A DNA stretch of 64,000 nt from Gemmatimonadota bacterium (GTDB lineage Bacteria; Gemmatimonadota; Gemmatimonadetes; Gemmatimonadales; GWC2-71-9), in the NCBI GenBank assembly GCA_039930765.1, contig JBDTTF010000181.1:29307-93306 (forward strand). The letters are read 5' to 3'. The position numbers were made by a program, and so were the translations under genes. This document shows, in pieces, positions 31,742 through 58,052 of the stretch; position 1 is the stretch's first letter, and each line of letters starts with the position of its first letter. The notes beneath the pieces are model-generated. The model was not told where the DNA came from. It made no database searches and saw only the letters and a list, made by a program, of their open reading frames with translations.

Positions 31742-31748
31742 ATGGACC

Positions 31749-36528: not shown

Positions 36529-36824
36529 CAGGGTTTGTCAGTCTGGCCCGGACGAGCCATGAAGTCGATGAATTCGGAATCACTGGGCATGTGGAGATTG
36601 AGCGACTGAACCCCGTGCTCGACCAGGGTCTGGCGGCTCGAGGCGCTGCGGATCTGGCGCTCGAGCTCGGCCCGGCGAGCGATCAGGGCCCGGTGATCCT
36701 CCCGCAGCAGGTTGAGCCGCTTGGCCGATTCGAGGCCGGAGGTCTGCCGGGTCACGACCAGACCGGTCACGACCAGGAACAGGACCAGCCATAGCATGAC
36801 CCAGTGCCGGCCCTTGAAATTCAT
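36528..36824 (-). CDS. ftsL: Cell division protein FtsL-like
   Basis: Trimmed to ATG 36824 (MNFKGRHWVMLWLVLFLVVTGLVV, then a coiled coil). It has ATGA overlap with the rsmH stop and a 1-nt overlap with ftsI. This is the canonical position. Confidence 0.7.
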   Translation of the reverse strand: MNFKGRHWVMLWLVLFLVVTGLVVTRQTSGLESAKRLNLLREDHRALIARRAELERQIRSASSRQTLVEHGVQSLNLHMPSDSEFIDFMARPGQTDKP

Positions 36825-41744: not shown

Positions 41745-42208
41745 CAGGCCTCCATGGCGGCCAGCGCCAGCCGCTCCTCGGAATTGAGCAGCCGAGCGGC
41801 GTTGAGCAGGATGATCGTCCGATCGGGCTGCGCCACGATGCCGGAGATGTAGACCGCGGCCAGTCCCCTCACCATCGGCGGGGGGGCCGAGATCAGGGCG
41901 GCGTCGATCCGGAGGACTTCGAGCACCTGGTCGACCACGATGGCCACCCGCTGGGTTTCCAGTTCGAGGACCATCATCCGGACCTCTTCGCGGTGATCCG
42001 CCGGCACCGACAGGCGCTTGCGGAGGTCCACCACCGGTACCACCCCGCCGCCGTACCGGACTACCCCTTCGAGGAAGTCGGGGGTACCGGGCAGCATGGC
42101 CGGACGTTCGTAGCGGATGATTCGCTCGACCTGGAAGATGTTGACCGCGAATTCCTGCGGCCCCACCCGGAATGCCACGAACTGTAATTCGTCGCCCGGA
42201 GTGTTCAT
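41744..42208 (-). CDS. cheW: CheW-like coupling protein
   Basis: 154 aa with the CheW domain pattern LQFVAFRVGPQEFAVNIFQVERII...PDFLEGVVRYGGGVVPVVDLRKRL. Confidence 0.85.
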   Translation of the reverse strand: MNTPGDELQFVAFRVGPQEFAVNIFQVERIIRYERPAMLPGTPDFLEGVVRYGGGVVPVVDLRKRLSVPADHREEVRMMVLELETQRVAIVVDQVLEVLRIDAALISAPPPMVRGLAAVYISGIVAQPDRTIILLNAARLLNSEERLALAAMEA

Positions 42209-42636
42209 GCTCGGGTCCCCGCCTCGGCCAGTCGATCGCGAAGCGCGTTCAGGTTGAGTATCGGCACCAGGCCATCGTCCCGCCGGACCACGGCGCTGGC
42301 CCAGGGCAGTGTTTCACCGCTGGGTACCGGCAGCAATTCGCCCCGGGTCATCACATCCACCGCATCGACCTCGAAACAGATCGGTGACCCGTTCAGCTCA
42401 GCTACCAGGGCCAGCTCCGACTGGTGCGCCGGGTGCGGCCCACCAGACAGCAGCGCACCGAGATGAAAGACCGGCATCAGGGTGCCCCGGGCCCAGGTGA
42501 CACCCCGGAGCGACGGTTCGGTGCCGGGAACCTGGTGCACTGCTCCCAGGTCGGCGACTTCAATCACGTCGGCCAGGCGGATCCCGACCGACCGGCCGCC
42601 GGCGGTGGCCAATAGAAAATCGCTGATTTCATTCAT
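42205..42636 (-). CDS. CheW-like coupling protein (divergent)
   Basis: 143 aa with a CheW-like layout ([21 protein letters not shown]...[21 protein letters not shown]). It has 4-nt overlaps on both sides. Confidence 0.7.
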
Positions 42637-43700
42637 GCCCGCCGCCGCCGATCGAGCAGGCCGGTGAGCCGGGCCGCAATTCCCGTCAGCGGCAGCACCT
42701 CATCGGCGCCGCCTCCCTGCACCGCCGATTTGGGCATGCCCCAGACGGTCGAACTGGCCTGGTCCTGCGCGATCCCCCATCCGCCGGCGTCGTGAATGGC
42801 TTTGAGCCCGATGGCGCCATCGCGTCCGAGTCCCGTGAGCACCACGCCGATGGCGGCCCTGCCCCAGACCTGGGCCACCGAGTGAAACAGGGGGTCTGCC
42901 GAGGGACGCACACCCCAGATCGGCGCGGCCTGGTCCAGGGCGATCACCGGCTCCTCGGCTGCCATGATGACTCGCATGTGCCAGTCTCCCGGCGCGATGT
43001 ACACCGTATCGGGGCGCACCGCTTCACCATCCCTGGCTTCCACCACCGCCAGCTGACTCATGGCCGACAGCCGCTCGGCCAGGCTGGCGGTAAACCTCGG
43101 TGGCATGTGCTGGGCGACGACCACCGCGGTGTCCTGGCCGGCCACCAGGTTGGGAATCAGTTCTGCCAGCGCTCGTGGTCCGCCGGTCGAACTTGCGATG
43201 GCCACGGCGCAGCGGGCGTGGCCGATTCGCGGGGTGCTGCTGAGGGAACCGCGCTTGGGACGGGCCAGCATCGGCAATCGTCCAACCACCGCCGCCTGCG
43301 CCGCCCGCATGGCCTCGAGCAGGCGCGGCGCCAGCCGGATCGCCGCGCCGGGGCCGGGAGCGGCATCCTTGGCCACCAGCTCCACCGCGCCAAGTTCGAG
43401 GGCCCGGATCGTGGCCTCGGAACCGGGGCCGGCATAGGCGCTGACCACCACGATTGGGCGGGGCGACTCCGACATGATGTAGCCGATGGCGCCCAGCCCA
43501 TCCAGCTCCGGCATCTGAAGGTCCATGGTGACCAGATCCGGTTGCAGCGAATGGACCAGTTGCAGCCCTTCCATCCCGTTACTGGCGGTGCCCACCACCA
43601 GGAATTCCCCCGACCCGCCGAGAATATCGGAGATCATTCGCCGGTACAGTGCGCTGTCGTCGACGACCAGCACGGTCGGACGGTCAGAGATTCTGGTCAC
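42633..43700 (-). CDS. cheB: Chemotaxis response regulator protein-glutamate methylesterase CheB
   Basis: Trimmed to GTG 43700 ([23 protein letters not shown]...). It has a receiver domain followed by a methylesterase domain ([19 protein letters not shown]) and overlaps cheD by 17 nt. Confidence 0.9.
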
Positions 43701-44172
43701 CGTGCGCCACCGAGCGGACCCTGATCCGGCCATCCGCAACCGCAAAGTGGACCGAGCGGCCGAAGTCGCCACCCACCGCCTCGCCGACGACCGGGATGCC
43801 ATGCTGGTTGAGCACTTCGCGGGTGGCGACCACATTGCGCTCCCCCATCTGCATCGAGCCGGGGGGAGCCAGGTTGGCAAACATCGAAGCCCCGCCGATC
43901 AGCCGCGCCGTGATCCGTCGCTTCTCGGCACCCAGTGCAGTCATTTCCGCCAGCAGCGCGGGAATCGCCGACTGGGGAAATTTGGCGGGATTTTCCGAGC
44001 CGCGCCGCCCCAGCGAGAGCGACGGGAGCAGCACGTGGGCCAATCCGCCAATTTTCGCGGTCGAATCGTACAGGGCGATGGCCACGCAGCTGCCCAGACC
44101 GAGTGTAATCAGCTGGTCGCCGCTGACAGCAGCGGCGAAGTCCGCGACCCGGACAATCTTGTCGGCCGGCAT
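43684..44172 (-). CDS. cheD: Chemoreceptor glutamine deamidase CheD
   Basis: 162 aa with the CheD core [29 protein letters not shown]. Confidence 0.85.
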
Positions 44173-44993
44173 CAGGCGGCCAGCCGGTAGAGTCGTTCGC
44201 GGGCGTCGATCAATTCCAGCCGGTGCCGGCTGGGGCCGAGGATCGTCTCGACCTTGCCGAGCAGCAGGTATCCGCCGGGCCGGAGGGCATCGCAGAAAAT
44301 CTGCATCAATCGTTCCTGGCCTGGCCGGTCGAAATAAATGATGACATTGCGACAGGTGATGAAGTCATAGTTCGGCGCCGGAGCCGGCTCCCGCAGCATG
44401 TCGTGGCGGCGGACCCTGATCCGCTGCCGCAAACGTGGGTCGACCAGGTAGCGCTGGTCGGGCAGGCTGGTAAACCAGCGAGCGATGAGAGCCGGCTCGA
44501 CATCGGCCAGGGCCGCTTCGCTGTAGATGCCGGCCGCCGCCTTTTCGAGCGACAGCCGGTCGATATCGGTGGCATCGATCACGATCCGCTCCAGCCACGC
44601 TGCATGGCCCAGGTCCGCGGCCGCCTCGGCCAGGACCATCGCGAGGGTGTGCGCCTCTTCGCCGGAGGCACAGCCGGCGCACCAGATCTGCCGGAGGCCA
44701 TTGCCGCTGAACAACTCGGGAGCCACCAGCCGGCTGACCGTCTGCCAGGTTTCCCGGTTGCGGTAGAACCGGGTGACGTTGATTGTGAGCACGTCGGTCA
44801 ATCGCTGCATTTCGGTGGCGGACTGCTGGAGCAGCGTCCGAAATTCATCATAGGTATGGACCCCGCACGCCCGCATCCTGACCGCCACCCGCCGGCGGAG
44901 GCACTTGTCCTTGTAGTCACCCAGGGCCAGCCCGGCGCTGGTTGAGATGTAGCCGGTGAGCCGGGCAAACCCTTCATCGTCGCCGGAGGTCAT
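44172..44993 (-). CDS. cheR: Chemotaxis protein methyltransferase CheR
   Basis: 273 aa with TINVTRFYRN and the SAM-binding region IWCAGCASGEEAHTLAMVL. Confidence 0.9.
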   Translation of the reverse strand: MTSGDDEGFARLTGYISTSAGLALGDYKDKCLRRRVAVRMRACGVHTYDEFRTLLQQSATEMQRLTDVLTINVTRFYRNRETWQTVSRLVAPELFSGNGLRQIWCAGCASGEEAHTLAMVLAEAAADLGHAAWLERIVIDATDIDRLSLEKAAAGIYSEAALADVEPALIARWFTSLPDQRYLVDPRLRQRIRVRRHDMLREPAPAPNYDFITCRNVIIYFDRPGQERLMQIFCDALRPGGYLLLGKVETILGPSRHRLELIDARERLYRLAA

Positions 44994-46609
44994 TCGGGTC
45001 CGCCCAGCGTATCCAGGTTGGCCCGGGCCAGCTGGTGGGCCGGATTGAGTTCAAGGGTACGCTGCCACGCCTCGCGGGCCCGCTCGCGATCGCGCCGTTT
45101 GTAGGCAATGTTGCCGAGCTTGAAGTGCAGGTCGTCGCCCAGCTCGGGGCTGAGCTTGGCCGCCCGTTCGTAGGCCTCGAACGCCTCATCGTACATCCCG
45201 GCGCGGTAAGCCAGGTCGCCGAGATTCTTGGAGACCTGCGGCAGCGACGGATCCTCGGCCAGGGCGGCCTTGAGCAGCACCGCGGCACCGTCGAGGTCTC
45301 CGACCAGTTCCAGCAGGGCCGCGAGATTGTTGCGCAGCACCGGGTTGGCCGGATACGCCTCGATCGATTCGCGGCCCAGCGCCAGGGCCGGCTCGATCTC
45401 GCCATTGCCGGCGGCCGCGAGCATCGCGGCCCAGTACCAGAGGGCCGGCGGGGTGCGCTCCCCCAGCAGTTCCCTGGCCCGGGCCAGCCGGCCCTGTGCC
45501 ACGGCCGGATCCTGCCGCTTCAGCGCTGCCACTCCCCAGGCGATCATCGGCCGGATGTCGTCGCGCGCCTTGCTGGCCGCTTCTCCATACAGCTGCTCCG
45601 CTTCGGCAATCCGGCCCAGCTGTTCGAGGGCAAAGGCCAGGTTGTGCAGCACCGCCGGGCGGGCCCCGGGCTGCCCCTGCGCTTCCTTCAGCACCTCCAC
45701 CGCGTCCGACCACCGGGCCTGCCGCAGCGCGATCAGGCCCAGGTAGAACGCCGAACTGGGGTCAGCGGCCCGGAGCTCTGCCACCCGGCGAAATTCGCGC
45801 TGCGCCTCGTCCAGCATTCCGGTCTTGTAGAACGCGATGCCCAGGTTCTGGTGCTCCATGACCCGGGCATCGGTGGCGCGCGGCTCGGTCTTGGCCACCG
45901 AGGTGCCGGTGCGCTTCACGAAACCGGCAGTGATCAGGCCGTACAGGGCCTTGCCGACCTCGAACTCCACCAGACCCGACTCCTCCACCAGCTGGTGGAC
46001 ATCGCGGCGCCCGTCCATCAGGGCCAGTAGCCGGACCTGGCTCGATGACAGTTCGGCATCCGACCCTTCTACCCGCAGCTTGTCGGCCTCAAAGATCAGA
46101 TCGAACGACGGCAGCTTCTTCTCGATCAGGCTCCACTCATCGATCCGGCGGGCCCCTTCGAGCAGCAGCGATTCCGGATTGATGGCGACCAGGAAATCCT
46201 GCTGCTCCGGTCGCATCCCGGCTTCAAAATTGAAAGTGCCGGAGGTCCAGGTAAACAGGAAATAGACCGCCTCCTCGATCTGGAGGCGCATGTACTCCTC
46301 CAGATCGTCGCGGGCGATGACACCCATACCGAGGAGGATCTGGCCCAGCTTCTTGTCGCGGCGATCGGCCTGCTGGCGGATGGCGTCGTCAAGCTGGTCG
46401 ACCGTGATCCGGCCATTCTTGACCAGCAGGTCGCCGATCCGGTCGCGGCGGTTGACGATGCTGGCGTAGCTGATCCGCCCCTGGTCGAAGAAGATGTAGC
46501 CGAAGTTCTGCCGGTCGGCGACCGCCAGGCAGCCGCTCTTCTTGCCCAGCGCCAGGAGCTGGAGCACGTCGGGGAGGCTGGCCTCCTTGAGACTTCCCTT
46601 GATCGCCAT
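44990..46609 (-). CDS. PATAN/DUF4388 domain + TPR protein (paralog 1)
   Basis: 539 aa. The N-terminus MAIKGSLKEASLPDVLQLLALGKKSGCLAVADRQNFGYIFFDQGRISYA matches the DUF4388 pattern. It is followed by LG.IL...G.I helical repeats and a C-terminal TPR array. Confidence 0.75.
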   Translation of the reverse strand: MAIKGSLKEASLPDVLQLLALGKKSGCLAVADRQNFGYIFFDQGRISYASIVNRRDRIGDLLVKNGRITVDQLDDAIRQQADRRDKKLGQILLGMGVIARDDLEEYMRLQIEEAVYFLFTWTSGTFNFEAGMRPEQQDFLVAINPESLLLEGARRIDEWSLIEKKLPSFDLIFEADKLRVEGSDAELSSSQVRLLALMDGRRDVHQLVEESGLVEFEVGKALYGLITAGFVKRTGTSVAKTEPRATDARVMEHQNLGIAFYKTGMLDEAQREFRRVAELRAADPSSAFYLGLIALRQARWSDAVEVLKEAQGQPGARPAVLHNLAFALEQLGRIAEAEQLYGEAASKARDDIRPMIAWGVAALKRQDPAVAQGRLARARELLGERTPPALWYWAAMLAAAGNGEIEPALALGRESIEAYPANPVLRNNLAALLELVGDLDGAAVLLKAALAEDPSLPQVSKNLGDLAYRAGMYDEAFEAYERAAKLSPELGDDLHFKLGNIAYKRRDRERAREAWQRTLELNPAHQLARANLDTLGGPE

Positions 46610-46610
46610 A

Positions 46611-48575
46611 TCAGCGCGGGTCCTCGATCAGGCGATCGGCTGGATCGGGCCAGTCCCAGACCACCTTTTCCCGGCTCTTGATCGAGGCCAGCGGCGAAAT
46701 CACTCCGCTTGCCCGGCCCGCGGTTGACCGGCGAGCCGGAGCGGCGGGCGCCCCTTCAAGCACCCGGCGCGCCAGCCCGGCGGTCGGGGCCAGCTGCTGG
46801 GTTTCCGCTGCGTTGAGCACCCGCTGCACCAGCCCCTGCAGCGCCCGGACCGAATCGACCGCCCGGCCGGCCAGGTAGCTGGCCAGCGGTTCCAGTTCCG
46901 CCGGATCGAGCTGGGCCGGCAGCAGTTTGCGGACGATACCGAACCGGACATCGCGATCCGGAGCGGGCAGTTCAACCACCAGCCCGCCTTCGAGCCTGGT
47001 AATCAGGCGGGCGTCGATGCCCTTGAGCTGGTCCAGCGGCACGGCGCAGGTGAACACCAGCTGGCGGCTGCCCTCGGCCATCAGGTTGAACAGCCAGAAC
47101 AACTCCTCCTGCGAGCGCTCCCGGCCGGCCAGCAACTGCACGTCATCGAGCAGCAGCGCGGTCGCCCGGCGATAACGTGACCGCCACCAGTTGACCCGGT
47201 CCTTCTCGATGGCCTTGATCAGGTCGTCAATGAAATCGGCGGTACCGAGGCAGGCGACGATCGAACCAGGCGCGCGGGCCAGTTCATTGCCCAGGGCCTG
47301 CAGCAGGTGCGTCTTGCCCACACCGGGCTGGCCAACGATCACCAGCGGATTGTACGCCGTGCCCGGCTTGTCGATGATTTCGCGAACCGCACGCAGGGCG
47401 ATCCGGGTCCCGACTCCTTCGGCGAAATCCGACAGGCTGAAGTGCGGACTTGGTGCCGGTGGCGGAAGGGTGCCCTGCCGGGCAGCCTCGACCCGGGCCT
47501 GGGCCTCCGCAACGCTATCGGGATCGCGAAAGATCGAATTGCCGGCCAGGGCAGGATCAAGTTCGGACGCCTCAACCTCGAGCAGCCGGAGCTGTTCGAC
47601 GTCGGCCAGGAACTCGCGCAGCACGGCATCGGGATCGACGGGCGTGTCCTGGTTGAGCAGGGTGGTCAGTCGATGCACCCGGTACCCTTCACCCTCCCAG
47701 CTTTGCAGCGCCTCCGCCACCCGGGTGCGCCAGACCTCGACTTGCTGATTGACCGCCTGGGTGACCTCGGAAAGGAACGAGCTGAATTCATCTCCGGTGG
47801 CGCGCAGCGGCGGCAGCCCGCCACTCGGTGCGCCGGACTCGCCGGCCTGACTGCGACCCTTCTGTCCCAGCACCGCCAGGGCGCCCGCCGCGTCGAGCGG
47901 GCTATCGCTCACGGCCTGAAACGCGATCAGCCGGTTGAGTGCGCCGATCAATTCCCTGACACTGCCATGGCCGAGCCCCGCCACGGTGTCGAGCACCGAC
48001 GGATCGAGCACGGCGCCCCGTTCCTCGGCCTGGCGGCGGAGAATGGCCACCCGGGTCTCGAATTCCGGCGCGGCGATATCGATGACCAGCCCGCCGGCAA
48101 ATCGCTGGATCAGCCGCTCATCCAGCGATTCGATTTCCGAGGGCGCGCGGTCACTGGTCAGCACGATCTGGCGTCCCGCCACCAGCATGGCATTGACCAC
48201 CCGCAGCAACTCGGCCTGCATCTCGCGCCGGTGGGTGAGAAACTGGACGTCATCGAGCAGCAGCAGGTCGATCTCGGTGAACCGGCGGCGGTAGGCATCG
48301 CCCTGGCCAGCGGCCACCGCGGCATGAAAAGCCTCGACGAAATCATCCAGGGTGAGATATTCCACCCGGAGCTGCGGATTGATCGCGGTGGCGGCATGCC
48401 CGATGGCCATCTGCAGGTGGGTCTTGCCGAGCCCCGAGCCGCCGTAGATGAAGAGCGGGTTGTAGACCGCACCGGGGGACTCGCTGACGGCCCGGCCGGC
48501 GGTGGCCGCCAGCCGATTGGCCGCACCCACCACGAAGCTCTCGAACCGGTACCGGGGATTGAGCGGCAGGGTCAC
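46611..48575 (-). CDS. Tandem DnaA-type AAA+ ATPase (two complete DnaA domain-III-like modules, no domain I or IV)
   Basis: 654 aa with a GTG start overlapping the mglA stop (GTGA). Module 1 has [43 protein letters not shown] and [11 protein letters not shown]. Module 2 has [38 protein letters not shown] and [11 protein letters not shown]. No helix-turn-helix DnaA C-terminal domain is visible. Confidence 0.8.
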
Positions 48576-49174
48576 CCGATCGATCCCCCGGCCGCCAGCC
48601 GCTTGAGGACCAGTTCCGAAATGGCCCGCAGGGTCTCGAACACGCCGCTGCCCCGGATCGCATCGGCGCCGAAGCTCCTGAGCTCGCGGAAGTTCAGCAT
48701 CTCGTCGAGGTCCTGCGGATTCAGGATCAGGTCGCGCGGCAGGTCCTGCTTGTTGTACTGCAGCACAATCGGGAAATGGCGGACGTCGATGCCCTGCTGC
48801 AGCAGATTCTGCTGCAGGTTCTGCAGGCTTTCGAGGTTGTCATCCTGGCGCCGGGCCTGGCTGTCGGCCACGAAGACCACCCCGTCAGTGCCCTGGAGGA
48901 CCAGCCGGCGGGTGGCGTTGTAGTACACCTGGCCCGGTACGGTGTAGAGCTGGAACCGGGTGGTGAACCCGGAGATGACCCCGAGATCAAGCGGCAGGAA
49001 ATCGAAGAACAGGGTGCGGTCTGTCTGGGTAGCCAGCGAGACCATCCGTCCCCGCCGGCTCTCCGGCACCCGGCCGTAGATGTAGTGGAGGTTGGTGGTC
49101 TTGCCCGATCGCCCGGGACCGTAGTACACGATCTTGCAGGTGATTTCGCGGGTGGTGAAGTTCACGAGCGACAT
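48572..49174 (-). CDS. mglA: Ras-like small GTPase MglA
   Basis: Trimmed to ATG 49174. [33 protein letters not shown]...[11 protein letters not shown]...YTVPGQVYY...QYNKQDLP aligns along its whole length with Myxococcus MglA, including the P-loop, the intrinsic Arg, the catalytic Gln and the NKxD motif. Confidence 0.9.
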
Positions 49175-49178
49175 CAGG

Positions 49179-49640
49179 TCACCGTCCGAAGAGCGTGCGC
49201 AAGCTGGCATTCAGCTCGCGCTCGAAATCGATGGCCAGCACCTGGCGGGGTGGCTCGGCCACCGGGGCAGCCGCAGCCAGTTGCTCGACCATCCGTTCGA
49301 AGAAGAATTGCACGACTCCCAGCTTGGTTTCGGTTCCGAAGACCACCAGGCCGATCCAGTTGGCCCGCGGCATCGGGATCTGGGCCAGCAGGTGTGACTG
49401 CCGCATGCCCTGGTGGACCAGGATCCGGAACTGGGGCCAGCCCATCAGTACGGTCAGCTCCTGCGACGACGCCATGATGCCGGCGCCCAGGGCCGCCGCC
49501 GACATGACGTCGAGTGAGCGGGCAAAGCCGTGTTGCGCCACGACCTGCCCTGAGCCGGTCATGATGAGGGTCAGTCGCGGCGCCGCATCATCGACGAACC
49601 CACGCAGCGGACCCTCAACCCAGCCCTCGATCGTCCTCAT
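49179..49640 (-). CDS. mglB: MglB-like Roadblock/LC7 protein (probable MglA GAP)
   Basis: Trimmed to ATG 49640 ([10 protein letters not shown]...). The core [16 protein letters not shown]...[17 protein letters not shown]...[18 protein letters not shown] parallels Myxococcus MglB. The gene lies 4 nt upstream of mglA. Confidence 0.75.
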
Positions 49641-49987
49641 CAGGCGACCTGCTCCGCGGCCCGCAGCAACTCCAGCCGGGCCAGCCCGACCGGGGTCTGG
49701 GGGCCGGTGACGATGGCCAGCAGCATGTCCCCGGGTACCCTGGCAATCAGGATACTGCCCTTCTCGGCATGCATCTGCAGGCAGCGGAGATTGCCCCGCC
49801 CCAGCACTTCGCTGAGTGCGGTCACGTGGTCGGCGAGATTGGCGGCCAGCGCGGCAACCCCGGCGCTCTGGATGTCCTCTGCCAACGCCTCGGTGATGAC
49901 CACACCGTCGCTGGCGGAGAGCAGCACGGCGCCGCGGACTCCGCGGATCCGGACCAGCGGCTCGAGAATGGCTTGCAGATCGGGCAT
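49640..49987 (-). CDS. Roadblock/LC7 domain protein (MglB paralog, MglC-like)
   Basis: 115 aa. IRGVRGAVLLSASDGVVITEAL...AALAANL...GSILIARVPGDMLLAIVTGPQTPVGLARLEL is a typical RLC7 pattern. It has 1-nt overlaps on both sides. Confidence 0.75.
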   Translation of the reverse strand: MPDLQAILEPLVRIRGVRGAVLLSASDGVVITEALAEDIQSAGVAALAANLADHVTALSEVLGRGNLRCLQMHAEKGSILIARVPGDMLLAIVTGPQTPVGLARLELLRAAEQVA

Positions 49988-50853
49988 CAGCCGAGCGCTT
50001 CCAGCCAGGCCCGGGCACCGCGAGCCGAACGCTCGGCCATCAGGGTGATCTGGCCGATCGGCACCTCGCGCTCCTGCACTTCGAGCAGGATGGTCTCGGC
50101 AGTCGGTGCCAGCAGGCAGGCGTGCATCCCGTCGCTCTCGATGACCAGCGACCGCCAGGCCCCGAGGCCGACCCGGTCGGCGGTGCGATGGGCTTCGTGG
50201 ACCACCCCTTCCGATTCCGACGCGGCCCGTTCGGTGACATCCTCACCGGTCCAGGTTTCCAGCTTGCCCGCCATGCTCAGGCCGCCACTCCCGATCAGCA
50301 GCCGATGACCGCTCTGCGACCCGGCCGCGCCGAATGGAGTGACCGGACCGCTGGGCGCGGGAGCGGCGGCAGCCGCAGTGGCCGTGGCGATCGCTGACGC
50401 GAATGCATCGACCGGCGGCGCTGCCGCACTCGGCGCGGTCCCGCGTTCCTCGTCCAGCAATTCACGCAGGCGGATAATCGCCGCGTGGAGTCCCTCATCG
50501 CCGGGGGATTCTCGCCAGGCCGCCTCGAGGTGCACCAGCGCCTGGCCGTGGTCAGCGGCCTGGTAGTAGAGGAAGCCGAGCCCCTTGAGCGCGCCCAGGT
50601 GGGTGGGATCGAGCCGGAGCGCCATGTCCCACTCGTCAAAGGCCCGCTGGAAATCCTGGCGGTCCGCCAGGATCCTGGCATACTGGTCGTGGGCGGCGGG
50701 CAGGTGCGGATAGCGGCTGAGACCGTTGACCACGACCTTCTCCGCAACTTCCACCTGCCCTTTGCGGCGCAGTGCCTCCGCCAGGTCGAGAAAGGCCAGG
50801 CTCGAGGGGTCCGACGCGACTTCCGCCGTCAGCGCCCGAATGTCCTCATTCAT
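49987..50853 (-). CDS. TPR + C-terminal Roadblock/LC7-like fusion protein
   Basis: Trimmed to ATG 50853 (MNEDIRALTAEV...). It has N-terminal TPR units, an Ala/Pro linker, then an RLC7-like region at the C-terminus (HRLLIGSGGLSMAGK...WRSLVIESDGMHACLLAP...LLEVQEREVPIGQITL). Confidence 0.6.
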   Translation of the reverse strand: MNEDIRALTAEVASDPSSLAFLDLAEALRRKGQVEVAEKVVVNGLSRYPHLPAAHDQYARILADRQDFQRAFDEWDMALRLDPTHLGALKGLGFLYYQAADHGQALVHLEAAWRESPGDEGLHAAIIRLRELLDEERGTAPSAAAPPVDAFASAIATATAAAAAPAPSGPVTPFGAAGSQSGHRLLIGSGGLSMAGKLETWTGEDVTERAASESEGVVHEAHRTADRVGLGAWRSLVIESDGMHACLLAPTAETILLEVQEREVPIGQITLMAERSARGARAWLEALG

Positions 50854-51994
50854 GTGCGCTCCGCAGAACCTGGTCGAGGGAGATGGTGGCCTGACGTACC
50901 TGATCCAGCCCTGGGGCCTGTGACTCTTCTTCCGGCGGCTTCGGTGCGTGTCCGAACCAGCGGTCGAAGACCTCGGTGGCCTCACGAAACCTGCCCACGG
51001 CAGCCAGGGCGTAACCGAGGTAGCGGAGCGGCACGGCCGTGGTGGTGTCCAGTTCGGCCGACCGCCAGAGGGCATCGACGGCTTCCTCGTACCGGCGGGC
51101 CGCCAGCAGGGCGCGGCCGTAGACCAGCGAGGCCAGCGCCTGGTGTTCGTGAGCCGCGACCGCCGACTCGGCCGCGGCCAGCGCTGCGCTCACGTCGCCG
51201 GCCACGAGGTGGGCCTCGGCCTCTCCGATCTGGAAGGTCAGGCCGCCAGCGGTCGGAGACGCCAGCCTGCGCGAGGCGGGATCTTCAAGGAGAATAATCC
51301 CGGCACTGGCGAGCCCGAAGAGGGTTTTGGCCACGTCGAACTCGGGCCGGCCGAGGGCCGAGGCCAGGGCCCGCACATCGCCGGTGCCGTCGACCACACC
51401 GAGCAGCTCCCACTCATTGGGCAGCAGGTCCAGCGATCCGGCGCTGTCGGAGGCCGGGGCAAAAACCGGAATGATCCCGAGATTCGGAATCCGCTTCTCG
51501 ATCCGGGACCATTCGTCGATTCGCCGGGCCGCCTCCATGAGCAGGAAGCCGACTGGAGTCCGGATCAGCGCTTCGGCCGGCGCCTCGGAGACCGGCCGGT
51601 CCTGAAAAGAGAAATATCCCTCGGACCAGCTCATCAGCTCGAACACCACCTCTTCCGACTGCCGGCGGACCTGGCGGGTCAACTCTCGCTCCGAGATGGC
51701 GCCGATCCCGACCAGGATTTCCCCCAGCCGCCGGGGATCACCGCTCTGCTGCATGGCCCGGGTCCGCATCAGGTCGGCTTCCGCAATCTTGCCAGCCCGC
51801 ACCAGGATGGTGCCGAGCGGATGGGGATTGCTGTCGATCACCGCACCGATGACGCTGCCGTTCTCGAACCAGACCGTGCCCTGATTCTGCCGCAGCTCCG
51901 AGGTGACCTTGAGCACTCCCGTCTTCTGGCTCAGGTCGAGGAGCTGGAACACGTCGTGGATGCCCAGCTCCTTGAGCGGCCCCTCGATGGCCAT
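50846..51994 (-). CDS. PATAN/DUF4388 domain + TPR protein (paralog 2)
   Basis: Trimmed to ATG 51994. MAIEGPLKELGIHDVFQLLDLSQKTGVLKVTSELRQNQGTVWFENGSVIGA matches DUF4388. It has the same middle region as paralog 1 (RRIDEWSRIEKRIP versus RRIDEWSLIEKKLP) and C-terminal TPR units. Confidence 0.75.
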   Translation of the reverse strand: MAIEGPLKELGIHDVFQLLDLSQKTGVLKVTSELRQNQGTVWFENGSVIGAVIDSNPHPLGTILVRAGKIAEADLMRTRAMQQSGDPRRLGEILVGIGAISERELTRQVRRQSEEVVFELMSWSEGYFSFQDRPVSEAPAEALIRTPVGFLLMEAARRIDEWSRIEKRIPNLGIIPVFAPASDSAGSLDLLPNEWELLGVVDGTGDVRALASALGRPEFDVAKTLFGLASAGIILLEDPASRRLASPTAGGLTFQIGEAEAHLVAGDVSAALAAAESAVAAHEHQALASLVYGRALLAARRYEEAVDALWRSAELDTTTAVPLRYLGYALAAVGRFREATEVFDRWFGHAPKPPEEESQAPGLDQVRQATISLDQVLRSAHE

Positions 51995-51996
51995 GG

Positions 51997-54693
51997 CTAG
52001 ACGGCCTGCGGAGTGAAGATCCGCTGCAGATCCTTGGCCGAGCGCGCATTGCTGCGCGCCGCTTGTGCGTGCGGACCGGCAGGATCGGACTGGACCGTCC
52101 GCTCCCACGCGAGGATGGCTTCGGGGTATCGGCGCAGCCGCGCCTGGGCCGTGCCCAGGCTGTACAGCGCCGCCGCATGATCGGGCTGGAATCGCAGGAT
52201 CCGCTCGAACGCCTCGACGGCCCGCTCGGGACGCGCGTCATCGATCAGGCATTTGCCCAGCAGCAGCAGCGCGTCGAGGTCGAACGGTTCGGCGGCCAGG
52301 ATCTGGACCAGGATATCAATACCCGCCGCCGGTGAATCGACCCGGCGCACCAGGTCGGCCAGCGCCAGGGCGGCTTCCATATAGGTGGGCAGCAGGTCGA
52401 TGGCGCGCTGATACGCGACCTTGGCGGCAACCCAGTTTTCCCGCGCCTCCTCGAGACGGCCCAGTTCGACCCATACCGAGGCCACGCCTGGGTCCAGTTG
52501 CAGGGCGGCCTGGTACGCCTCCACCGCAGCGCTCGAATCGCCGAGCCGCAGGGTGGCCCGGGCCTGCAACTGCAGCAGGTCGGCCCGGCCCGGGGCCAGG
52601 ATCTGGGCCTGCCGCAGCGGTTCCAGTGCCCCGCCGGGGTTGGCGCTGGCCAGCCGGGCGCGAGCGGCCGCGACCAGCACCTCGACATCACCGGGATAGT
52701 CCCGAAGCAGTTCGTCCGCCAGCGGGGCCGCCTCTTCGCCGTGATCGAGCGAGAGCAGCGACCTGACTTCGCCAAGCCGGGCGTCCAGGGCCCGCGGGTC
52801 GAGCATCCGGGCCTGCCGGTACCGCTCCAGCGCCTCACCGTGGAGGCCCCGCCGCGCGAACACCAATCCCGTCAGCGCCAGTCCCCGCGCCCGCGGCGCC
52901 CCCCGCTGCAGCGCCCGGTCCAGCTCGGCCGAAGCCTGGTCGAGCAACCCCTTGGCCACGCAGTCAGCGGCGAGGGTCAATCCGTCCTCGACGCCGGGTT
53001 CGCCGACCGCGGTCGGGGCCACCGGCGCCAGCTCCTCGAAAATCCGGTCGAGCAGCCGGGTATCGAGCGTAAAATCCTCGCCGACCTCGGAGCCTTCGAC
53101 ATCGGCCGAGATCTGCGGGGCGATCGCGATCTGGGAATTCTCGAACTGGAGATCGATGGTCAGGGCGTACTTCTGCGGGATGTAGTACGGCTCGATCTCG
53201 AGGGCCCGCTTGGTCTCCCGCAGCGCGCCGTCGAAATCGCCCAGGTGGCTGAGCGTAAAGCTGAGGTTGTAGTGGGCGGCGGCGTGGCCGCTGTCGGCGT
53301 CGACCGCCCGGGAAAAAGCATTGCGGGCATCATCGTACCGCTTGAGCTCGACCAGCACCATGCCGATGCCGTTCCAGGCCACGCTTTCCGACGGCCGGTC
53401 GCTCAACGCCTGACGGTACGCCTCGATGGCATCCTGGAATTTCCGGCGCTGGAACAGCAGCAGCCCGTAGTTGAGCCGCGGACCCGACAGCCCGGAGCTG
53501 ATCCGCAGCGCCTGGCGGAACGCCTCGAGGGAGGCGGCCGGATCGGGATCCTGCGCCAGCAAGACGCCGAGGTTATTCCAGGCCAGTGCATATGAGCTGT
53601 CGAGCGCCAGCGCCTGGCGGTACGAGTCCTCGGCGGCCTGACGGCGTCCGGACTGATGCAGGCAGACTCCCCGCTCGTTCCAGATCTTGGGCGAGTCAGC
53701 CGCTTCCTTCGACAACTGCTCGTACAGTCCGAGTGCGGCGGGCAGGTCCCGCCGGAGCAGATGGACTTCAGCCATGGCCTGCAGCACCAGCCGCCGGTCC
53801 TCACTGGCCTCGAGCGCCAGCTTGTATTCCCGCAGGGCCTCGACGTAGTAACCCTTTTGCCGGAAGGCGAGGCCGAGGTTGTAATGCGCCAGCGCCCCGC
53901 CAACGCTGATCGCCGGACGGGGACTCTCGATGGCCTTCTGGACCTCCCGCGAAATCCGCCCGCTGTCCCGGCGGCGGCCGAGCGAGAGATTACTCTGGGC
54001 CCGGGCCAGCGTCGGGTTCAGTGCGATGGCGCGCTTGGTCGCGGCCCGGGCCGCCTCGTGATCGCCCTGGTCGCCATACACAAAGGCCAGCAGGTAGTGC
54101 GCGTCGGCGTGATCCGGGTTTCTGGCAATGACCTTTTCCAGCACCCGCTGCGACTGCTCCGAGATGCCGCGGTTGTACAGCACCTCGCCGTAATGGAACA
54201 ACGTGACCGGTCCATCCGGATCGAGGCTGGTGGCCCGCCGCAGGTAATCCTCGGCCGCTTCGAGCCGGCCCCGGGCCTTTTCCGCCATGCCCAGCTGCAC
54301 CAGGCAGGCGACATCATCGGGATCCTTCTGCAGCAGCAGCTCGTACTCCGCCACCGCCTCGGCATGGTGCCCGAGCGAGGCGTAGGTCCGGGCCAGTTCC
54401 CAGCGGGCCTCGTGATCGTCCTCGCCGCGGCGCAGCCGGTCCTTGAGTTCGCCGACCCGCCGGTCGTAGTAACCATGGGCGTGGTAGGCGATCTCGAGAT
54501 TGGTCTGGGCCACCTGCATCTTGGGATCGAGCTCGAGCGAACGCAGAAACTGGGTGATGGCTTCCGCCACCAGCCCTTTCTGGTAGTACAGCACCCCGAG
54601 ATTGTTGTGGGCACCTGCGTCGGAGGGATCGATCCGGCGGGCAAAGGAGCGAAGAACCGCGAGGTCCCGCTCGGAGAGGGCGGGAACGCTCAC
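51997..54693 (-). CDS. Large TPR repeat protein (898 aa)
   Basis: TPR units are near-continuous from N- to C-terminus (repeated A...Y..AL.LDP motifs). There is no signal peptide and no enzymatic motif. Confidence 0.8.
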   Translation of the reverse strand: MSVPALSERDLAVLRSFARRIDPSDAGAHNNLGVLYYQKGLVAEAITQFLRSLELDPKMQVAQTNLEIAYHAHGYYDRRVGELKDRLRRGEDDHEARWELARTYASLGHHAEAVAEYELLLQKDPDDVACLVQLGMAEKARGRLEAAEDYLRRATSLDPDGPVTLFHYGEVLYNRGISEQSQRVLEKVIARNPDHADAHYLLAFVYGDQGDHEAARAATKRAIALNPTLARAQSNLSLGRRRDSGRISREVQKAIESPRPAISVGGALAHYNLGLAFRQKGYYVEALREYKLALEASEDRRLVLQAMAEVHLLRRDLPAALGLYEQLSKEAADSPKIWNERGVCLHQSGRRQAAEDSYRQALALDSSYALAWNNLGVLLAQDPDPAASLEAFRQALRISSGLSGPRLNYGLLLFQRRKFQDAIEAYRQALSDRPSESVAWNGIGMVLVELKRYDDARNAFSRAVDADSGHAAAHYNLSFTLSHLGDFDGALRETKRALEIEPYYIPQKYALTIDLQFENSQIAIAPQISADVEGSEVGEDFTLDTRLLDRIFEELAPVAPTAVGEPGVEDGLTLAADCVAKGLLDQASAELDRALQRGAPRARGLALTGLVFARRGLHGEALERYRQARMLDPRALDARLGEVRSLLSLDHGEEAAPLADELLRDYPGDVEVLVAAARARLASANPGGALEPLRQAQILAPGRADLLQLQARATLRLGDSSAAVEAYQAALQLDPGVASVWVELGRLEEARENWVAAKVAYQRAIDLLPTYMEAALALADLVRRVDSPAAGIDILVQILAAEPFDLDALLLLGKCLIDDARPERAVEAFERILRFQPDHAAALYSLGTAQARLRRYPEAILAWERTVQSDPAGPHAQAARSNARSAKDLQRIFTPQAV

Positions 54694-54696
54694 GGC

Positions 54697-55317
54697 TCAG
54701 GTCAGGCGGATGGCGTCGAAAATCACCCGGAGCGACGCCACGTCCGGCAGCAGCAGGAAGTGACCGGTCAGGTTGAGGGTGCGGTCCTCGAGCAGGAACT
54801 CGGTCTCGACGCAGAACACGAAATCGCGGGCATAGCCGAAGTTCATGTAGGTCGAGGTCAGCACGGCCCCGCACAGGTCGATGGCCAGGCTGGGCACCGA
54901 GGGAACCAGCATCATCCCCATGAAATCACTGAGGGCGTTGAGATAGGCGCTCGACAGGATGTTGCCGACCTCCTTGAGGCCGGACTGCTCCATGGCGCCG
55001 AACACCTCGGTAGTGCCGATCGGACGCTTGAGCAGGATGTCGCAGAGCTGCCGGGCGCTGGGCTCGGGGAAGATCAGCAGGGTGCGGCCGGTCAGATCGC
55101 CCATCATGTGCATCAGCACCGCGGCGACGACATCATCCGCCTTGCCCAGCACTTCGGGCACTTCCTCGAGGCGGGTGATATTCACCTCGGGAACGCTGAT
55201 CATGATGGTGCGATTGGTCAGCTGCGACAGCGCAGTGGCCGCGTGGCCCGCCCCGATGTTGGCCACCTCGCGGAGGGCATCCTGCTGCAGTGCGTGCAAG
55301 TCCCGTACGTCGTCCAT
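54697..55317 (-). CDS. cheC: CheC-like CheY-P phosphatase
   Basis: 206 aa with DALREVANIGAGHAATALSQL and a second half-site, GLKEVGNILSSAYLNALS. Confidence 0.8.
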   Translation of the reverse strand: MDDVRDLHALQQDALREVANIGAGHAATALSQLTNRTIMISVPEVNITRLEEVPEVLGKADDVVAAVLMHMMGDLTGRTLLIFPEPSARQLCDILLKRPIGTTEVFGAMEQSGLKEVGNILSSAYLNALSDFMGMMLVPSVPSLAIDLCGAVLTSTYMNFGYARDFVFCVETEFLLEDRTLNLTGHFLLLPDVASLRVIFDAIRLT

Positions 55318-55325
55318 GGCAGCTC

Positions 55326-57206
55326 CTAGACCAGCGCGGCCGGATCGAGGATGAGCACCGGCACTCCGTCACCCAGAATCGTTGCACCGCTGAAGACCGG
55401 CAGCATTCCCCGCGGCCCATCGAACGGCTCCACCACGATCTCCTGCTGGCCGACCAGGGCATCGACCACCAGCGCCAGCCGGCGACCTCCGACATCGATC
55501 ACGATGGCGGGCCGGCGGCCCTCGGTGCGCCGCGGTCCCACGCCCAGCCGTTCACGCAGGTGCATGGTCGGAATCACCTGGTCCCGCAGCACCAGCGCCT
55601 CGCGGCCCTGGACCTCGGCCGAACGAGCGCCACTGAACTCCAGGGTCTCGGCCACGCTGGTCAGCGGCACCGCGTAGCGTTCGTCGCCGACCCGGGCCAG
55701 CAGTGCCCGCAGGATCGCGAGGCTGGTGGGCAGGTGCAGGGTGAAGGTGCTGCCCTCTCCCTCGACCGAGTGCAGGTGGACCGAGCCGCCGAGCGACCGG
55801 ACCCGCGACACCACCGCGTCCATTCCCATGCCACGACCCGACACATCCGTGACCTGTGCCGCGGTCGAGAAACCAGGCCGGATGACGACTCGCAGCAGCT
55901 GGTCGTCGGTCAACGACGTGGAACCCGGTTCCACCAGGCTTTCCCGCAGCGCCTTATCCAGGACCCGCTGCCGGTTGATCCCGGCGCCGTCATCGATCAC
56001 CCGGATCGCGACGCCGGCCCGCTCGCGGGTGGCGCTCAGTTTGACCCGGGCTTCGGCCGGCTTGTTCCGCCGCTTCCGCTCCGCCGGCGATTCGATCCCG
56101 TGATCGACCGCGTTGCGGAGCAGGTGGATCAGCGGCTCGCCGAGTTCGTCGAGCAGGGCGCGATCGAGTTCGATCTCTTCGCCTTCGACCTCGAACGCCA
56201 CCCGCTTGCCGAGCTGACGGGACAGGTCACGCACCACCCGCGGGAACCGGTCGAACACCTGCCACACCGGTGTCATCCGGGCCTGGATGACCTCGGACTG
56301 CATCTCGGCGACCACCCGGGCCACCCGGGCACTCACCGCTTCGAGCTCGGGATTGCCTTCGCGGGAAACCAGTTCCGCCAGCCGGCCCTTGGCCACCACC
56401 AGCTCACCGACCTGGTTCATCAGGGCGTCGAGCCGGCGGAGGTCGACCCGGATCTGTCGATTGCGGCCGGTGCCCTCTGCCCCCGCCCTGTCATCGGCCG
56501 CCGGGGCAATCGGGGGGGCCAGATCACCGATGTCGACGCTGCCGACATCCCCGGCGCCCAGCAGGATGGTGCGGATTTCGTCGTCCGTCCGGGACGATTC
56601 CAGCCGGAAGGCAAACCGGCCATCGAACTCGTCCTGGTCGAAGCTGGCCGAGGCGGGCCTGACCGATGCCACGGTGCCCAGCCCTTCGGCCTTGCGCAGC
56701 GCGATTAATGCCCGGGCCCCACGCATGGCGGCACCTGGCCGGATCGCGATCCGGACCACCCGCCCGGTGGTACCGACCACCGGCTCGGGAATCCGGGCCG
56801 GGATGGCCCAGCTGCCGGTGGGCTGCGCCGCAACCGAGGCGTTGTCGAGCCCGGCGAACAGCCCGGTAAAATCCAGGGCGCTGTCGTTGCCGGCCACTGC
56901 ATCGTTAACGCCAGCTTCCAGCGCGTCCACGATGGCGAACATCAGGTCATGCAGCTCGGGCGAGGCGGAGCCCGGATCGCTGCGAAGCACATCGAGCAGG
57001 CTCTCGGCCCGGTGCGCCAGCTCGGTGAGGTTCGAGTACCCCATCGCGGCGGCCATGCCCTTGAAGGTGTGCATGGCCCGGAAAATTCCGACCACCGGTT
57101 CGGTGGCCCGGGGATCCCGCTCCCAGTCGAGCAACAGCTGGCTGCAGGCGCCGAGGTGTTCGCGGCTCTCGGTAACGAAGAGGGTGGCGTACCTCGACAG
57201 GTCCAT
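55326..57206 (-). CDS. cheA: Chemotaxis histidine kinase CheA
   Basis: Trimmed to ATG 57206 (MDLSRYATLF...). It has an Hpt domain with AMHTFKGMAA, a dimerisation region, HATPase boxes HLLRNAVDHGIE, DDGAGI and GRGMGMD, and a C-terminal CheW-like P5 domain. Confidence 0.9.
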   Translation of the reverse strand: MDLSRYATLFVTESREHLGACSQLLLDWERDPRATEPVVGIFRAMHTFKGMAAAMGYSNLTELAHRAESLLDVLRSDPGSASPELHDLMFAIVDALEAGVNDAVAGNDSALDFTGLFAGLDNASVAAQPTGSWAIPARIPEPVVGTTGRVVRIAIRPGAAMRGARALIALRKAEGLGTVASVRPASASFDQDEFDGRFAFRLESSRTDDEIRTILLGAGDVGSVDIGDLAPPIAPAADDRAGAEGTGRNRQIRVDLRRLDALMNQVGELVVAKGRLAELVSREGNPELEAVSARVARVVAEMQSEVIQARMTPVWQVFDRFPRVVRDLSRQLGKRVAFEVEGEEIELDRALLDELGEPLIHLLRNAVDHGIESPAERKRRNKPAEARVKLSATRERAGVAIRVIDDGAGINRQRVLDKALRESLVEPGSTSLTDDQLLRVVIRPGFSTAAQVTDVSGRGMGMDAVVSRVRSLGGSVHLHSVEGEGSTFTLHLPTSLAILRALLARVGDERYAVPLTSVAETLEFSGARSAEVQGREALVLRDQVIPTMHLRERLGVGPRRTEGRRPAIVIDVGGRRLALVVDALVGQQEIVVEPFDGPRGMLPVFSGATILGDGVPVLILDPAALV

Positions 57207-57210
57207 CGCG

Positions 57211-57573
57211 TCAGCCGAGGATGCGCTGCACCGCCTCGAGCACCCGTGACGGCTGGAATGGCTTGACCACGAAATCCTTGGCCCCCGCCTGCACCGCCTC
57301 CACGACCAGCGCCTGCTGTCCCATGGCACTGCACATCAGGATCTTGGCGTCGGGGTCGTTCTTGCAGATTTCGCGCACGGCATCGATGCCGCCCATGTCG
57401 GGCATCACGATGTCCATGGTGACCAGGTCGGGCTTGAGTTCACGATAGCGATCCACCGCCTCGCGACCGGTCTCGGCCTCGCCGACGACCTCGAATCCGG
57501 CCTGGGTCAGGATGTCGCTGATCATGGTGCGCATGAAGATGGCGTCGTCGCAGACTAGCACAGTGTGGCTCAC
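57211..57573 (-). CDS. cheY: Single-domain response regulator CheY
   Basis: 120 aa with a GTG start preceded by GGAGGG. It has the receiver residues VCDDA, TMDIVMP and FVVKPF. Confidence 0.9.
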   Translation of the reverse strand: MSHTVLVCDDAIFMRTMISDILTQAGFEVVGEAETGREAVDRYRELKPDLVTMDIVMPDMGGIDAVREICKNDPDAKILMCSAMGQQALVVEAVQAGAKDFVVKPFQPSRVLEAVQRILG

Positions 57574-57614
57574 GCGCCCTCCGGGCGATATGGGTCCAGC
57601 AGTAGCGGGGCGGC

Positions 57615-58052
57615 TCAGCCGCCGACGAGCGGAGCCACCAGGGCCCCGGGATCCAGCAGAATAAAAACTCGATCGTTGTAGCGCCCGACCGCGCGGACCA
57701 GTGCGGGATCAATACCGGGCATCCGCTCCGCAGCGGCCAGGCTGGCGACCTCGACGTCAATCAGGTCCAGCACTTCATCGACCTCCAGCCCGACCATCCG
57801 CCCTTCGAGTGCCAGCACCAGGACGGATGTGGCCCCGACCGCGACCGGTGCCCGCTGCAGCACGGCCGCTCCCCGGGCCACCGTCAACAATGAGCCCCGA
57901 ACGTTGATCAGGCCGTCGATCGCAGCCGGGGCTCCCGGAATTCGGGTGGCCGGCTGGGCCGGGATGATTTCGCGGATGGTCTCGACGGCCAAGGCGCAGC
58001 ACAGGTCAGCGACCTGGAAGACCACGAGCCGGACCCTCGGAGAATCAGCCAT
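57615..58052 (-). CDS. cheW: CheW-like coupling protein
   Basis: Trimmed to ATG 58052 (MADSPRVRLVVFQVADLCCALAVETIREII...IDGLINVRGSLLTV). The start overlaps the rluD 3' end by 8 nt. Confidence 0.8.
   Translation of the reverse strand: MADSPRVRLVVFQVADLCCALAVETIREIIPAQPATRIPGAPAAIDGLINVRGSLLTVARGAAVLQRAPVAVGATSVLVLALEGRMVGLEVDEVLDLIDVEVASLAAAERMPGIDPALVRAVGRYNDRVFILLDPGALVAPLVGG

Follow-up and report, generated by a model that had tools for sequence, protein, structure and literature searches.

Why would a single gene for the small GTPase MglA be accompanied by three consecutive genes of the roadblock/LC7 (RLC7) type, one of them fused to tetratricopeptide repeats (TPRs)? This question is raised by a locus in a 64,000-nucleotide stretch of DNA (hereafter, the window) from a metagenome-assembled genome (MAG) of a soil Gemmatimonadota bacterium, with a G+C content of 64-69% across the window. 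Our analysis indicates that the locus resembles the switch for cell polarity in Myxococcus, but in a more elaborate and hard-wired form that is found phylum-wide. As an overall explanation, we give an even chance to a combination of an MglB2/MglA switch, based on GTPase-activating protein (GAP) activity, with a second layer formed by a TPR-tethered RLC7:RLC7 pair, the whole under the control of chemosensory (Che) proteins.

The three roadblock genes and mglA

All genes of the roadblock/mglA block, as well as those of the che operon around it, are located on the minus strand. The block comprises the following genes (protein lengths in amino acids, aa; the basis of each assignment is given in brackets):

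49987..50853, minus strand: TPR-RLC7 fusion protein, 288 aa (Pfam TPR, AlphaFold2, Foldseek, orthologues, family profile)
49640..49987, minus strand: stand-alone roadblock/LC7 protein, 115 aa, generic or MglC-like type (Pfam Robl_LC7, PDB profile match)
49179..49640, minus strand: divergent MglB, 153 aa, with helix α3 and a C-terminal helix (PDB matches, profile, AlphaFold2, Foldseek)
48572..49174, minus strand: MglA, group-1 small GTPase, 200 aa (PDB 5ymx, 3.9e-72)

Translation of the first three intervals gave complete proteins of 288, 115, and 153 aa, and the three open reading frames recorded in a first-pass annotation of this DNA are therefore present where it had placed them. By direct reading of the sequence, the junction between the fusion and 115-aa genes is GGC TGATG CCC at 49987, and that between the 115-aa and MglB genes is GCC TGATG AGG at 49640. 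In both TGATG motifs the last base of the TGA stop codon doubles as the first base of the following ATG, so each gene shares a single nucleotide with the next, as had been described. A 4-nt spacer (CCTG) separates the MglB stop codon from the ATG of mglA at 49174, which agrees with the earlier placement of mglA downstream of the trio. There are further overlaps at the two ends of the block: an upstream gene for a PATAN-domain protein shares 8 nt (ATGAATGA) with the fusion gene, and a gene for an AAA+ ATPase begins within mglA, with the last 4 nt of the latter in common.

The identities of the proteins can be assigned with high confidence, although standard domain models recognize only part of the trio. 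The first-pass annotation had proposed a search of all three proteins with the Robl_LC7 profile (PF03259; gathering score, 23 bits), and this search recovered the 115-aa protein (37.6 bits) and neither the 153-aa protein (14.0 bits, under the cut-off) nor the 288-aa protein (no match). The roadblock nature of the stand-alone 115-aa protein is thus confirmed. It also matched an Asgard roadblock in the PDB (7f8m; 1e-8 with the single sequence and 4e-13 with the family profile), and its family profile was nearest to Asgard roadblocks and dynein LC7, with MglB more distant (3e-4). An Asp-Gly pair in the β1-β2 turn (D27-G28) is invariant in this family and corresponds to D26-G27 of Myxococcus xanthus MglC. 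An Asp before the invariant Gly has been used to tell MglC-clade from MglB-clade proteins (McLoon et al. 2016, PMC4719450). Since Asp-Gly is also common among generic roadblocks, the pair is weak evidence for the MglC type. All 25 relatives of the 115-aa protein carried PF03259; the homologue search was limited to these 25 proteins by its word index and is little informative on the distribution outside the phylum.

In the 288-aa protein, residues 1-138 form TPR repeats, which are matched by Pfam TPR families and appear as four TPR pairs in the AlphaFold2 model, followed by a disordered Ala/Pro-rich linker (residues ~140-180). The C-terminal 108 residues (181-288) are predicted to fold as an RLC7 domain that lacks helix α1, showing the topology β1-β2-α2-β3-β4-β5-α3 instead of the canonical α1-β1-β2-α2-β3-β4-β5. 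The predicted local distance difference test score (pLDDT) of the model was 87 overall and >90 over this domain. When the domain was compared with the PDB by Foldseek, it matched Roadblock3 (9jue) with a template modeling (TM) score of 0.75 and a root-mean-square deviation of 1.9 Å, and MglB (1j3w) with a TM score of 0.69. No Pfam family, including Robl_LC7, matched this C-terminus in the window protein itself. Robl_LC7 was matched by 29 of 42 full-length orthologues (45-50% identical), and the profile of the domain family retrieved Thermus thermophilus MglB (5e-5) and Asgard roadblocks (2e-4) from the PDB. The agreement of orthologue matches, family profile, and modeled fold identifies the C-terminus as a roadblock domain, so that the earlier description of a TPR protein with an RLC7-like C-terminus holds. 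The fusion-type domain represents a small family of 129 among 1.84 billion representative proteins at an E-value of 1e-3 or better. In this family the domain is nearly always C-terminal and most proteins have 160-330 aa, longer than a lone roadblock, which is consistent with the fusion architecture.

The 153-aa protein was recognized as an MglB, in line with the first-pass annotation, by structure-linked comparisons. A phmmer search of its sequence against the PDB returned MglB chains only (M. xanthus, 4e-6; T. thermophilus, 6e-5), and so did the family profile (1e-12 for Myxococcus and 4e-7 for Thermus), with no generic roadblock among the matches. The NCBIfam MglB equivalog NF052242, a model based on the Thermus type of MglB, scored 29.1 bits, under its cut-off of 200. 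The AlphaFold2 model (pLDDT, 86.7; predicted TM score, 0.75) has the complete topology α1-β1-β2-α2-β3-β4-β5-α3, and includes a C-terminal helix (residues 136-151), the C-terminal extension that had been claimed. The best 30 Foldseek matches of the model in the PDB were all MglB (E-value 3e-11, TM score 0.8-0.89). LAMTOR chains appeared only low in the same list. The last 16 residues are almost invariant in the family. Of the two small residues of M. xanthus MglB on helix α2 at the MglA interface, A64 is kept as A57, and G68 corresponds to an invariant Glu (E61).

The GTPase downstream matched M. xanthus MglA (PDB 5ymx) at 3.9e-72 and T. thermophilus MglA at 1.1e-66. It keeps the P-loop, Arg53 (TDRTLFF), Thr78, and Gln82 (TVPGQ), which are invariant in 71 orthologues; the intrinsic Arg and catalytic Gln of MglA serve the GTP hydrolysis stimulated by MglB (PMC3199381). 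By analogy with the established MglB2:MglA mechanism (PMC3199381; PMC11016934), the 153-aa MglB is likely to be the GAP of this MglA. It would act as a homodimer whose two-helix face binds MglA-GTP and repositions the Arg and Gln of MglA for hydrolysis, and the conserved C-terminal helix would give a second, allosteric contact, as in Myxococcus.

Public records give little indication of this trio. The 288-aa protein is 100% identical to the NCBI entry 'MAG: hypothetical protein ABJC74_09580 [Gemmatimonadota bacterium]', and its relatives are mostly annotated as 'TPR protein'. The MglB family is listed as 'hypothetical protein' without a Pfam domain in 118 of 120 clusters, and the 115-aa gene is the only one of the three publicly named roadblock. 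Therefore, domain-based surveys would score these mglA genes as lacking MglB, and with standard annotation missing two of the three roadblocks, multi-roadblock systems may be undercounted in surveys of the MglB family.

Conservation and possible pairing of the roadblock proteins

The distribution of the block was scanned with one genome per species. The fusion was encoded in 292 species genomes, of which the best 80 were analyzed as loci, and these were nearly all Gemmatimonadota. Metagenomes contain more than 500 such fusions. In every locus of sufficient length, all block genes strictly co-occurred and the gene order was constant: a large TPR protein of 898 aa (TPR898), PATAN-TPR, TPR-RLC7, RLC7, MglB, MglA, tandem AAA+, and PATAN-TPR. 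The junctions were also conserved. The fusion and RLC7 genes overlapped in 74 of 78 loci (by 4 nt in 67 and by 1 nt in 7), and the RLC7 and MglB genes in 76 of 76 (by 1 nt in 54 and by 4 nt in 22). The MglB and MglA genes remained adjacent in 78 loci and were separated by 2 to 6 nt in 77 of the 78; MglA and AAA+ genes overlapped by 4 nt in 62 loci and by 1 nt in 10. This conservation of overlapping or near-abutting junctions supports the coupled translation proposed at first pass. Given that the order and overlaps recur in about 75 other genomes, the arrangement of the trio is not due to chance.

Two short contigs with the complete typical gene order carry labels of other phyla, namely L043 (3.2 kb) and L048 (15 kb), from MAGs assigned to Myxococcales and Acidimicrobiia, respectively. 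These are probably mis-binned Gemmatimonadota contigs rather than instances of the operon in other phyla.

Comparison of the three families by hhalign showed that the RLC7 domain of the fusion and the 115-aa family are mutual nearest relatives (E-values of 2e-6 and 6e-6), each being about 3e-3 from the MglB family. A recent tandem duplication was rejected because the three families are only remotely related. Judged from these profile comparisons, the three roadblocks are distant, old paralogues.

Co-evolution was analyzed by the mirror-tree approach with pairwise distance matrices of 37 non-redundant loci, and cubic regression was used to take out the background held in common with MglA, PATAN-b, TPR898, and AAA+. 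Between the 115-aa protein and the fusion RLC7 domain, the partial r was 0.71 (Mantel p 0.0005); omission of any single clade gave values of 0.68-0.77, and within the largest clade it was 0.73. The TPR domain of the fusion itself gave about 0.25, and control segments of equal divergence ranged from -0.18 to 0.09; fast evolution or composition as the source of the signal was rejected on the basis of these controls. MglB and MglA, a pair known to bind, served as a positive control (partial r 0.30, p 0.0005). Neither the 115-aa protein nor the RLC7 domain of the fusion co-varied with MglB or MglA across these loci.

These results bear on the heteromeric RLC7 platform with a TPR tether that the first-pass annotation had suggested. 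Such a platform is plausible on the sequence evidence in one part, since a pairing of the fusion RLC7 domain with the 115-aa protein fits both their nearest-relative status and their co-variation. The inclusion of MglB in a mixed platform is not supported, because the extra RLC7 proteins show no coupling to MglB or MglA. Considering co-evolution, nearest-relative status, and co-translation together, we rate a heterodimer of the fusion RLC7 domain and the 115-aa protein slightly short of an even chance. Such a roadblock heterodimer would have no GAP activity of its own. Like MglC or a LAMTOR pair, it would form a layer with adaptor function, and its TPR arm would connect the MglB/MglA switch with further products of the operon or with a site in the cell.

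Several observations weigh against the layered, Che-controlled switch as a whole. In one shallow clade, made up of 12 close taxa, the correlation between the 115-aa protein and the fusion RLC7 domain is 0.00, and a mirror-tree correlation is indirect evidence of contact in any case. At the MglA interface, the position of G68 in M. xanthus MglB is occupied by an invariant Glu (E61) in the 153-aa family, so that details of the interface differ from those of M. xanthus. Moreover, the K14/R115/K120 (KRK) patch of M. xanthus MglB, the MglC-binding site in Myxococcus (PMC10329633), is replaced by W7, Q111, and R116. The Myxococcus-type contact between layers therefore cannot simply be transferred to this system. 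Lastly, the 64-kb window contains no gene for a methyl-accepting chemotaxis protein, RomR, RomX, or a motility apparatus.

The loss of the co-evolution signal in the shallow clade is also what would be expected if the trio formed three separate homodimers, with MglB as the sole GAP and the 115-aa and fusion proteins as independent, MglC-like factors for localization or sequestration. The characterized bacterial roadblocks MglB and MglC are all homodimers (PMC10329633), and the PDB relatives of both extra RLC7 proteins are homodimeric as well, for example the 'Roadblock3 homodimer' of 9jue. However, a partial r of 0.71 against at most 0.25 for the fusion's TPR domain is a strong and specific signal, and the fusion and 115-aa genes strictly co-occur and overlap. 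Direct contact is the easier explanation of these three features together, and it could be a contact from dimer to dimer instead of one inside a single dimer. On balance, we regard three independent homodimers as unlikely, yet as the most serious competitor among the alternatives considered here.

It is far less probable that the three roadblocks are alternative GAPs, with each RLC7 protein, or mixed dimers including MglB, stimulating MglA with differing strength or regulation. Helix α2, which forms the MglA-binding face of MglB, is strongly conserved in all three families, as such a role would predict. In contrast, co-variation with MglA was found in the MglB family only, this family is distant from the other two in the profile comparison, and MglC of Myxococcus shows no MglA binding or GAP activity (PMC4719450; PMC10329633).

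A more specific form of the layered arrangement is an obligate, TPR-anchored roadblock heterodimer stacked on the MglB dimer in a Ragulator-like manner and coupling the state of MglA to the che pathway. We consider this form rather doubtful. In such a complex, MglB might dock with its invariant C-terminal tail into the groove of the TPRs. This idea arises from the conservation of the tail and from a weak, non-robust co-variation between the TPR domain and MglB (residual r 0.34, p 0.0005), which fell to 0.17 without one clade and was -0.19 and 0.17 within clades. The co-variation is therefore retained only as a hint that the TPR domain may bind MglB.

The chemosensory operon

The roadblock/mglA block lies within an 18-gene chemosensory operon (40866-58052, minus strand) that has no intergenic gap larger than about 40 nt. 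This setting is the context that matters most for function and was absent from the first-pass annotation. From upstream to downstream, the operon contains CheW, CheY, CheA, CheC, TPR898, PATAN-TPR, the three RLC7 genes, and MglA, followed by tandem AAA+, PATAN-TPR, CheR, CheD, CheB, CheW, CheW, and a TPR protein. The genes around the block, all on the minus strand, are as follows:

57615-58052, minus strand: CheW (Pfam, start codon)
57211-57573, minus strand: CheY (Pfam, start codon)
55326-57206, minus strand: CheA (Pfam, start codon)
54697-55317, minus strand: CheC/CheX (Pfam, start codon)
51997..54693, minus strand: large TPR protein, 898 aa (Pfam TPR families; syntenic in all loci)
50846..51997, minus strand: PATAN (DUF4388)-TPR protein, 383 aa (Pfam DUF4388, 105 bits)
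46611..48575, minus strand: tandem DnaA-type AAA+ ATPase, 654 aa (Pfam Bac_DnaA twice; TIGR00362 at positions 103-335 only)
44990..46609, minus strand: PATAN (DUF4388)-TPR protein, 539 aa (Pfam DUF4388, 125 bits)
44172-44993, minus strand: CheR (Pfam)
43684-44172, minus strand: CheD (Pfam)
42633 to about 43700, minus strand: CheB (Pfam)
42205-42636, minus strand: CheW (Pfam)
41744-42208, minus strand: CheW (Pfam)
40866-41744, minus strand: TPR protein (Pfam)

The che genes are conserved together with the block: CheA and CheC were found upstream in 62-63 loci and CheR downstream in 61 loci, and independent gene calls on a 3.59-Mb contig (L081) gave the same 18 genes. Based on this operon membership, control of the module by the Che proteins is rather more probable than its absence. 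Signaling through CheA and CheY, and probably cyclic di-GMP (c-di-GMP) acting via the PATAN proteins, would set the state or position of the module. The operon would thus constitute a self-contained, Frz-like polarity switch under chemosensory control, the likely output of which would be a polar motility or surface apparatus.

The two PATAN proteins carry motifs of the MshEN type for c-di-GMP binding in their helical insert. The 539-aa protein has two motifs, RIGDLLVKNGRITVDQLDDAIRQQ and KLGQILLGMGVIARDDLEEYMRLQ, at residues 57 and 87, and the 383-aa protein has one, RLGEILVGIGAISERELTRQVRRQ, at residue 90. The NCBIfam model NF053729 was matched by the 539-aa protein with 46.5 bits (cut-off, 38), with the 383-aa protein not above this cut-off, and the strict motif was present in many but not all PATAN orthologues. 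The idea that the PATAN domains are hidden roadblocks was rejected, as profile-profile comparison of the two PATAN with the three RLC7 families gave a probability of at most 1.5%.

The 898-aa protein, consisting entirely of TPRs, is reminiscent of SgmX in its architecture. In Myxococcus, SgmX is a 14-TPR effector of MglA-GTP (PMC11580455).

The tandem AAA+ ATPase consists of two modules that are 32% identical to each other and that both keep Walker A and B; searches with Pfam and TIGR00362 found no DnaA DNA-binding domain. Its C-terminus has the conserved motif SREK.VWDWPD..DRLIED. We know of no comparable partner of MglA.

The presence of this ATPase raises the question of whether the extra RLC7 proteins regulate, instead of MglA, a different nucleoside triphosphatase (NTPase) or signaling protein encoded in the operon, for instance the tandem AAA+ ATPase or CheA/CheY. 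Roadblock proteins are general NTPase regulators (PMC10329633), the ATPase gene is always present and overlaps mglA, and neither extra RLC7 protein co-varies with MglA, all of which would fit such a role. However, the residual r of the two with AAA+ was negative (-0.34 and -0.47), by which the ATPase was rejected as their partner, and their genes are found on the same side of mglA as mglB, to which they are coupled, and not to the ATPase gene. A target other than MglA is therefore improbable, and the layered switch built on MglB and MglA is retained as the preferred explanation.

Additionally, a cluster of division and cell wall (dcw) genes (MraW, an FtsI-type penicillin-binding protein, MurE, MurF, and MraY; 30614-37723, minus strand) is located downstream of the che operon, at a distance of a few genes. 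In L081, the one other genome compared over this distance, the three genes between the che operon and dcw are in the same order, and the locus stops before the dcw genes.

Comparison with known systems

The nearest known system is the MglA/MglB/MglC(+RomR)/Frz system of Myxococcus, which likewise has a group-1 MglA with an Arg finger, an MglB with a C-terminal helix, one or more extra roadblock paralogues that are unlikely to be GAPs, and chemosensory input, and which shares the Asp-Gly signature of the 115-aa protein. A layered RomR/MglC/MglB complex has been described in Myxococcus, with a contact between layers that depends on the GTPase state (PMC10329633). Unlike the present locus, in which the trio is coupled to mglA within a che operon, Myxococcus has mglC, romR, and frz unlinked from mglBA, and its MglC is a homodimer. 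In addition, one roadblock is here fused to TPRs and lacks α1, the KRK patch of MglB is absent, and the window has neither RomR nor RomX. In Myxococcus, with its scattered genes, it has yet to be established how Frz acts on MglA, MglB, MglC, and RomR. All presumed partners are here in one co-translated, phylum-conserved operon, which offers a defined parts list for reconstitution.

Loci with more than one RLC7 gene per mglA have been reported in surveys. Coupling of a group-1 mglA to a pair of mglB-type genes is already known (PMC4316618; PMC4719450), and seven group-1 systems have an MglB-clade and an MglC-clade gene beside mglA (McLoon et al. 2016, PMC4719450). Together with the layered MglC/MglB complex, these two-mglB loci are nearer precedents than the first-pass annotation suggested. 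The surveyed loci have two rather than three RLC7 genes and no TPR fusion, and both the divergent MglB and the fusion domain of the present locus fall below the Pfam threshold that such surveys used. In the literature, we found no description of a third, TPR-fused roadblock beside mglA or of an mglA module within a che operon.

Group-1 MglA in Gemmatimonadetes and occasional PATAN neighbors have both been reported (Wuichet & Sogaard-Andersen 2015, PMC4316618). For Gemmatimonas aurantiaca T-27, Table S2 of that study lists only 'PATAN>MglA>-PATAN>' (GAU_1409) and a separate 'MglB>MglA>' (GAU_1115). Either this species has a reduced or split version of the operon, or its roadblock genes were unrecognized; its gene content bears on the choice of an experimental organism.

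Two other bacterial systems combine some of the same elements. The actinobacterial conservons (CvnA-D) likewise join a histidine-kinase-type sensor, a roadblock, and an MglA-family GTPase in one operon (PMC4316618; PMC13343842), but they have one roadblock, a membrane kinase in place of CheA/CheW/CheY/CheB/CheR, and a GTPase of group 2, which lacks the Arg finger. The chemotaxis-like Pix/Tax systems of cyanobacteria likewise combine che-type genes with PATAN proteins, and it is the latter that steer the motor of polar type IV pili (bioRxiv 10.1101/2021.06.11.447907). Their PATAN proteins have receiver domains, whereas PATAN is fused to TPR here, and they have no MglA/roadblock module. The Gemmatimonadota operon provides a compact and widely conserved system for testing how chemosensing is linked to a polarity GTPase and whether bacteria have a roadblock heterodimer.

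The eukaryotic counterpart of such an arrangement is Ragulator, in which stacked heteromeric roadblock dimers (LAMTOR2/3 and LAMTOR4/5) form a platform for small GTPases with a layer contact tuned by the nucleotide state (PMC10329633). Ragulator differs in being lysosomal and in serving GTPases that have roadblock domains of their own, and its relation to the present proteins is one of shared fold only, with the heterodimer here a putative one. A real heterodimer would mean that platforms of layered roadblocks serving small GTPases are not an invention of eukaryotes or Asgard archaea. Should the more specific Ragulator-like arrangement also apply, it would represent the first heterodimeric roadblock layer in bacteria and a genetically compact model of how chemosensory signals reach a polarity GTPase.

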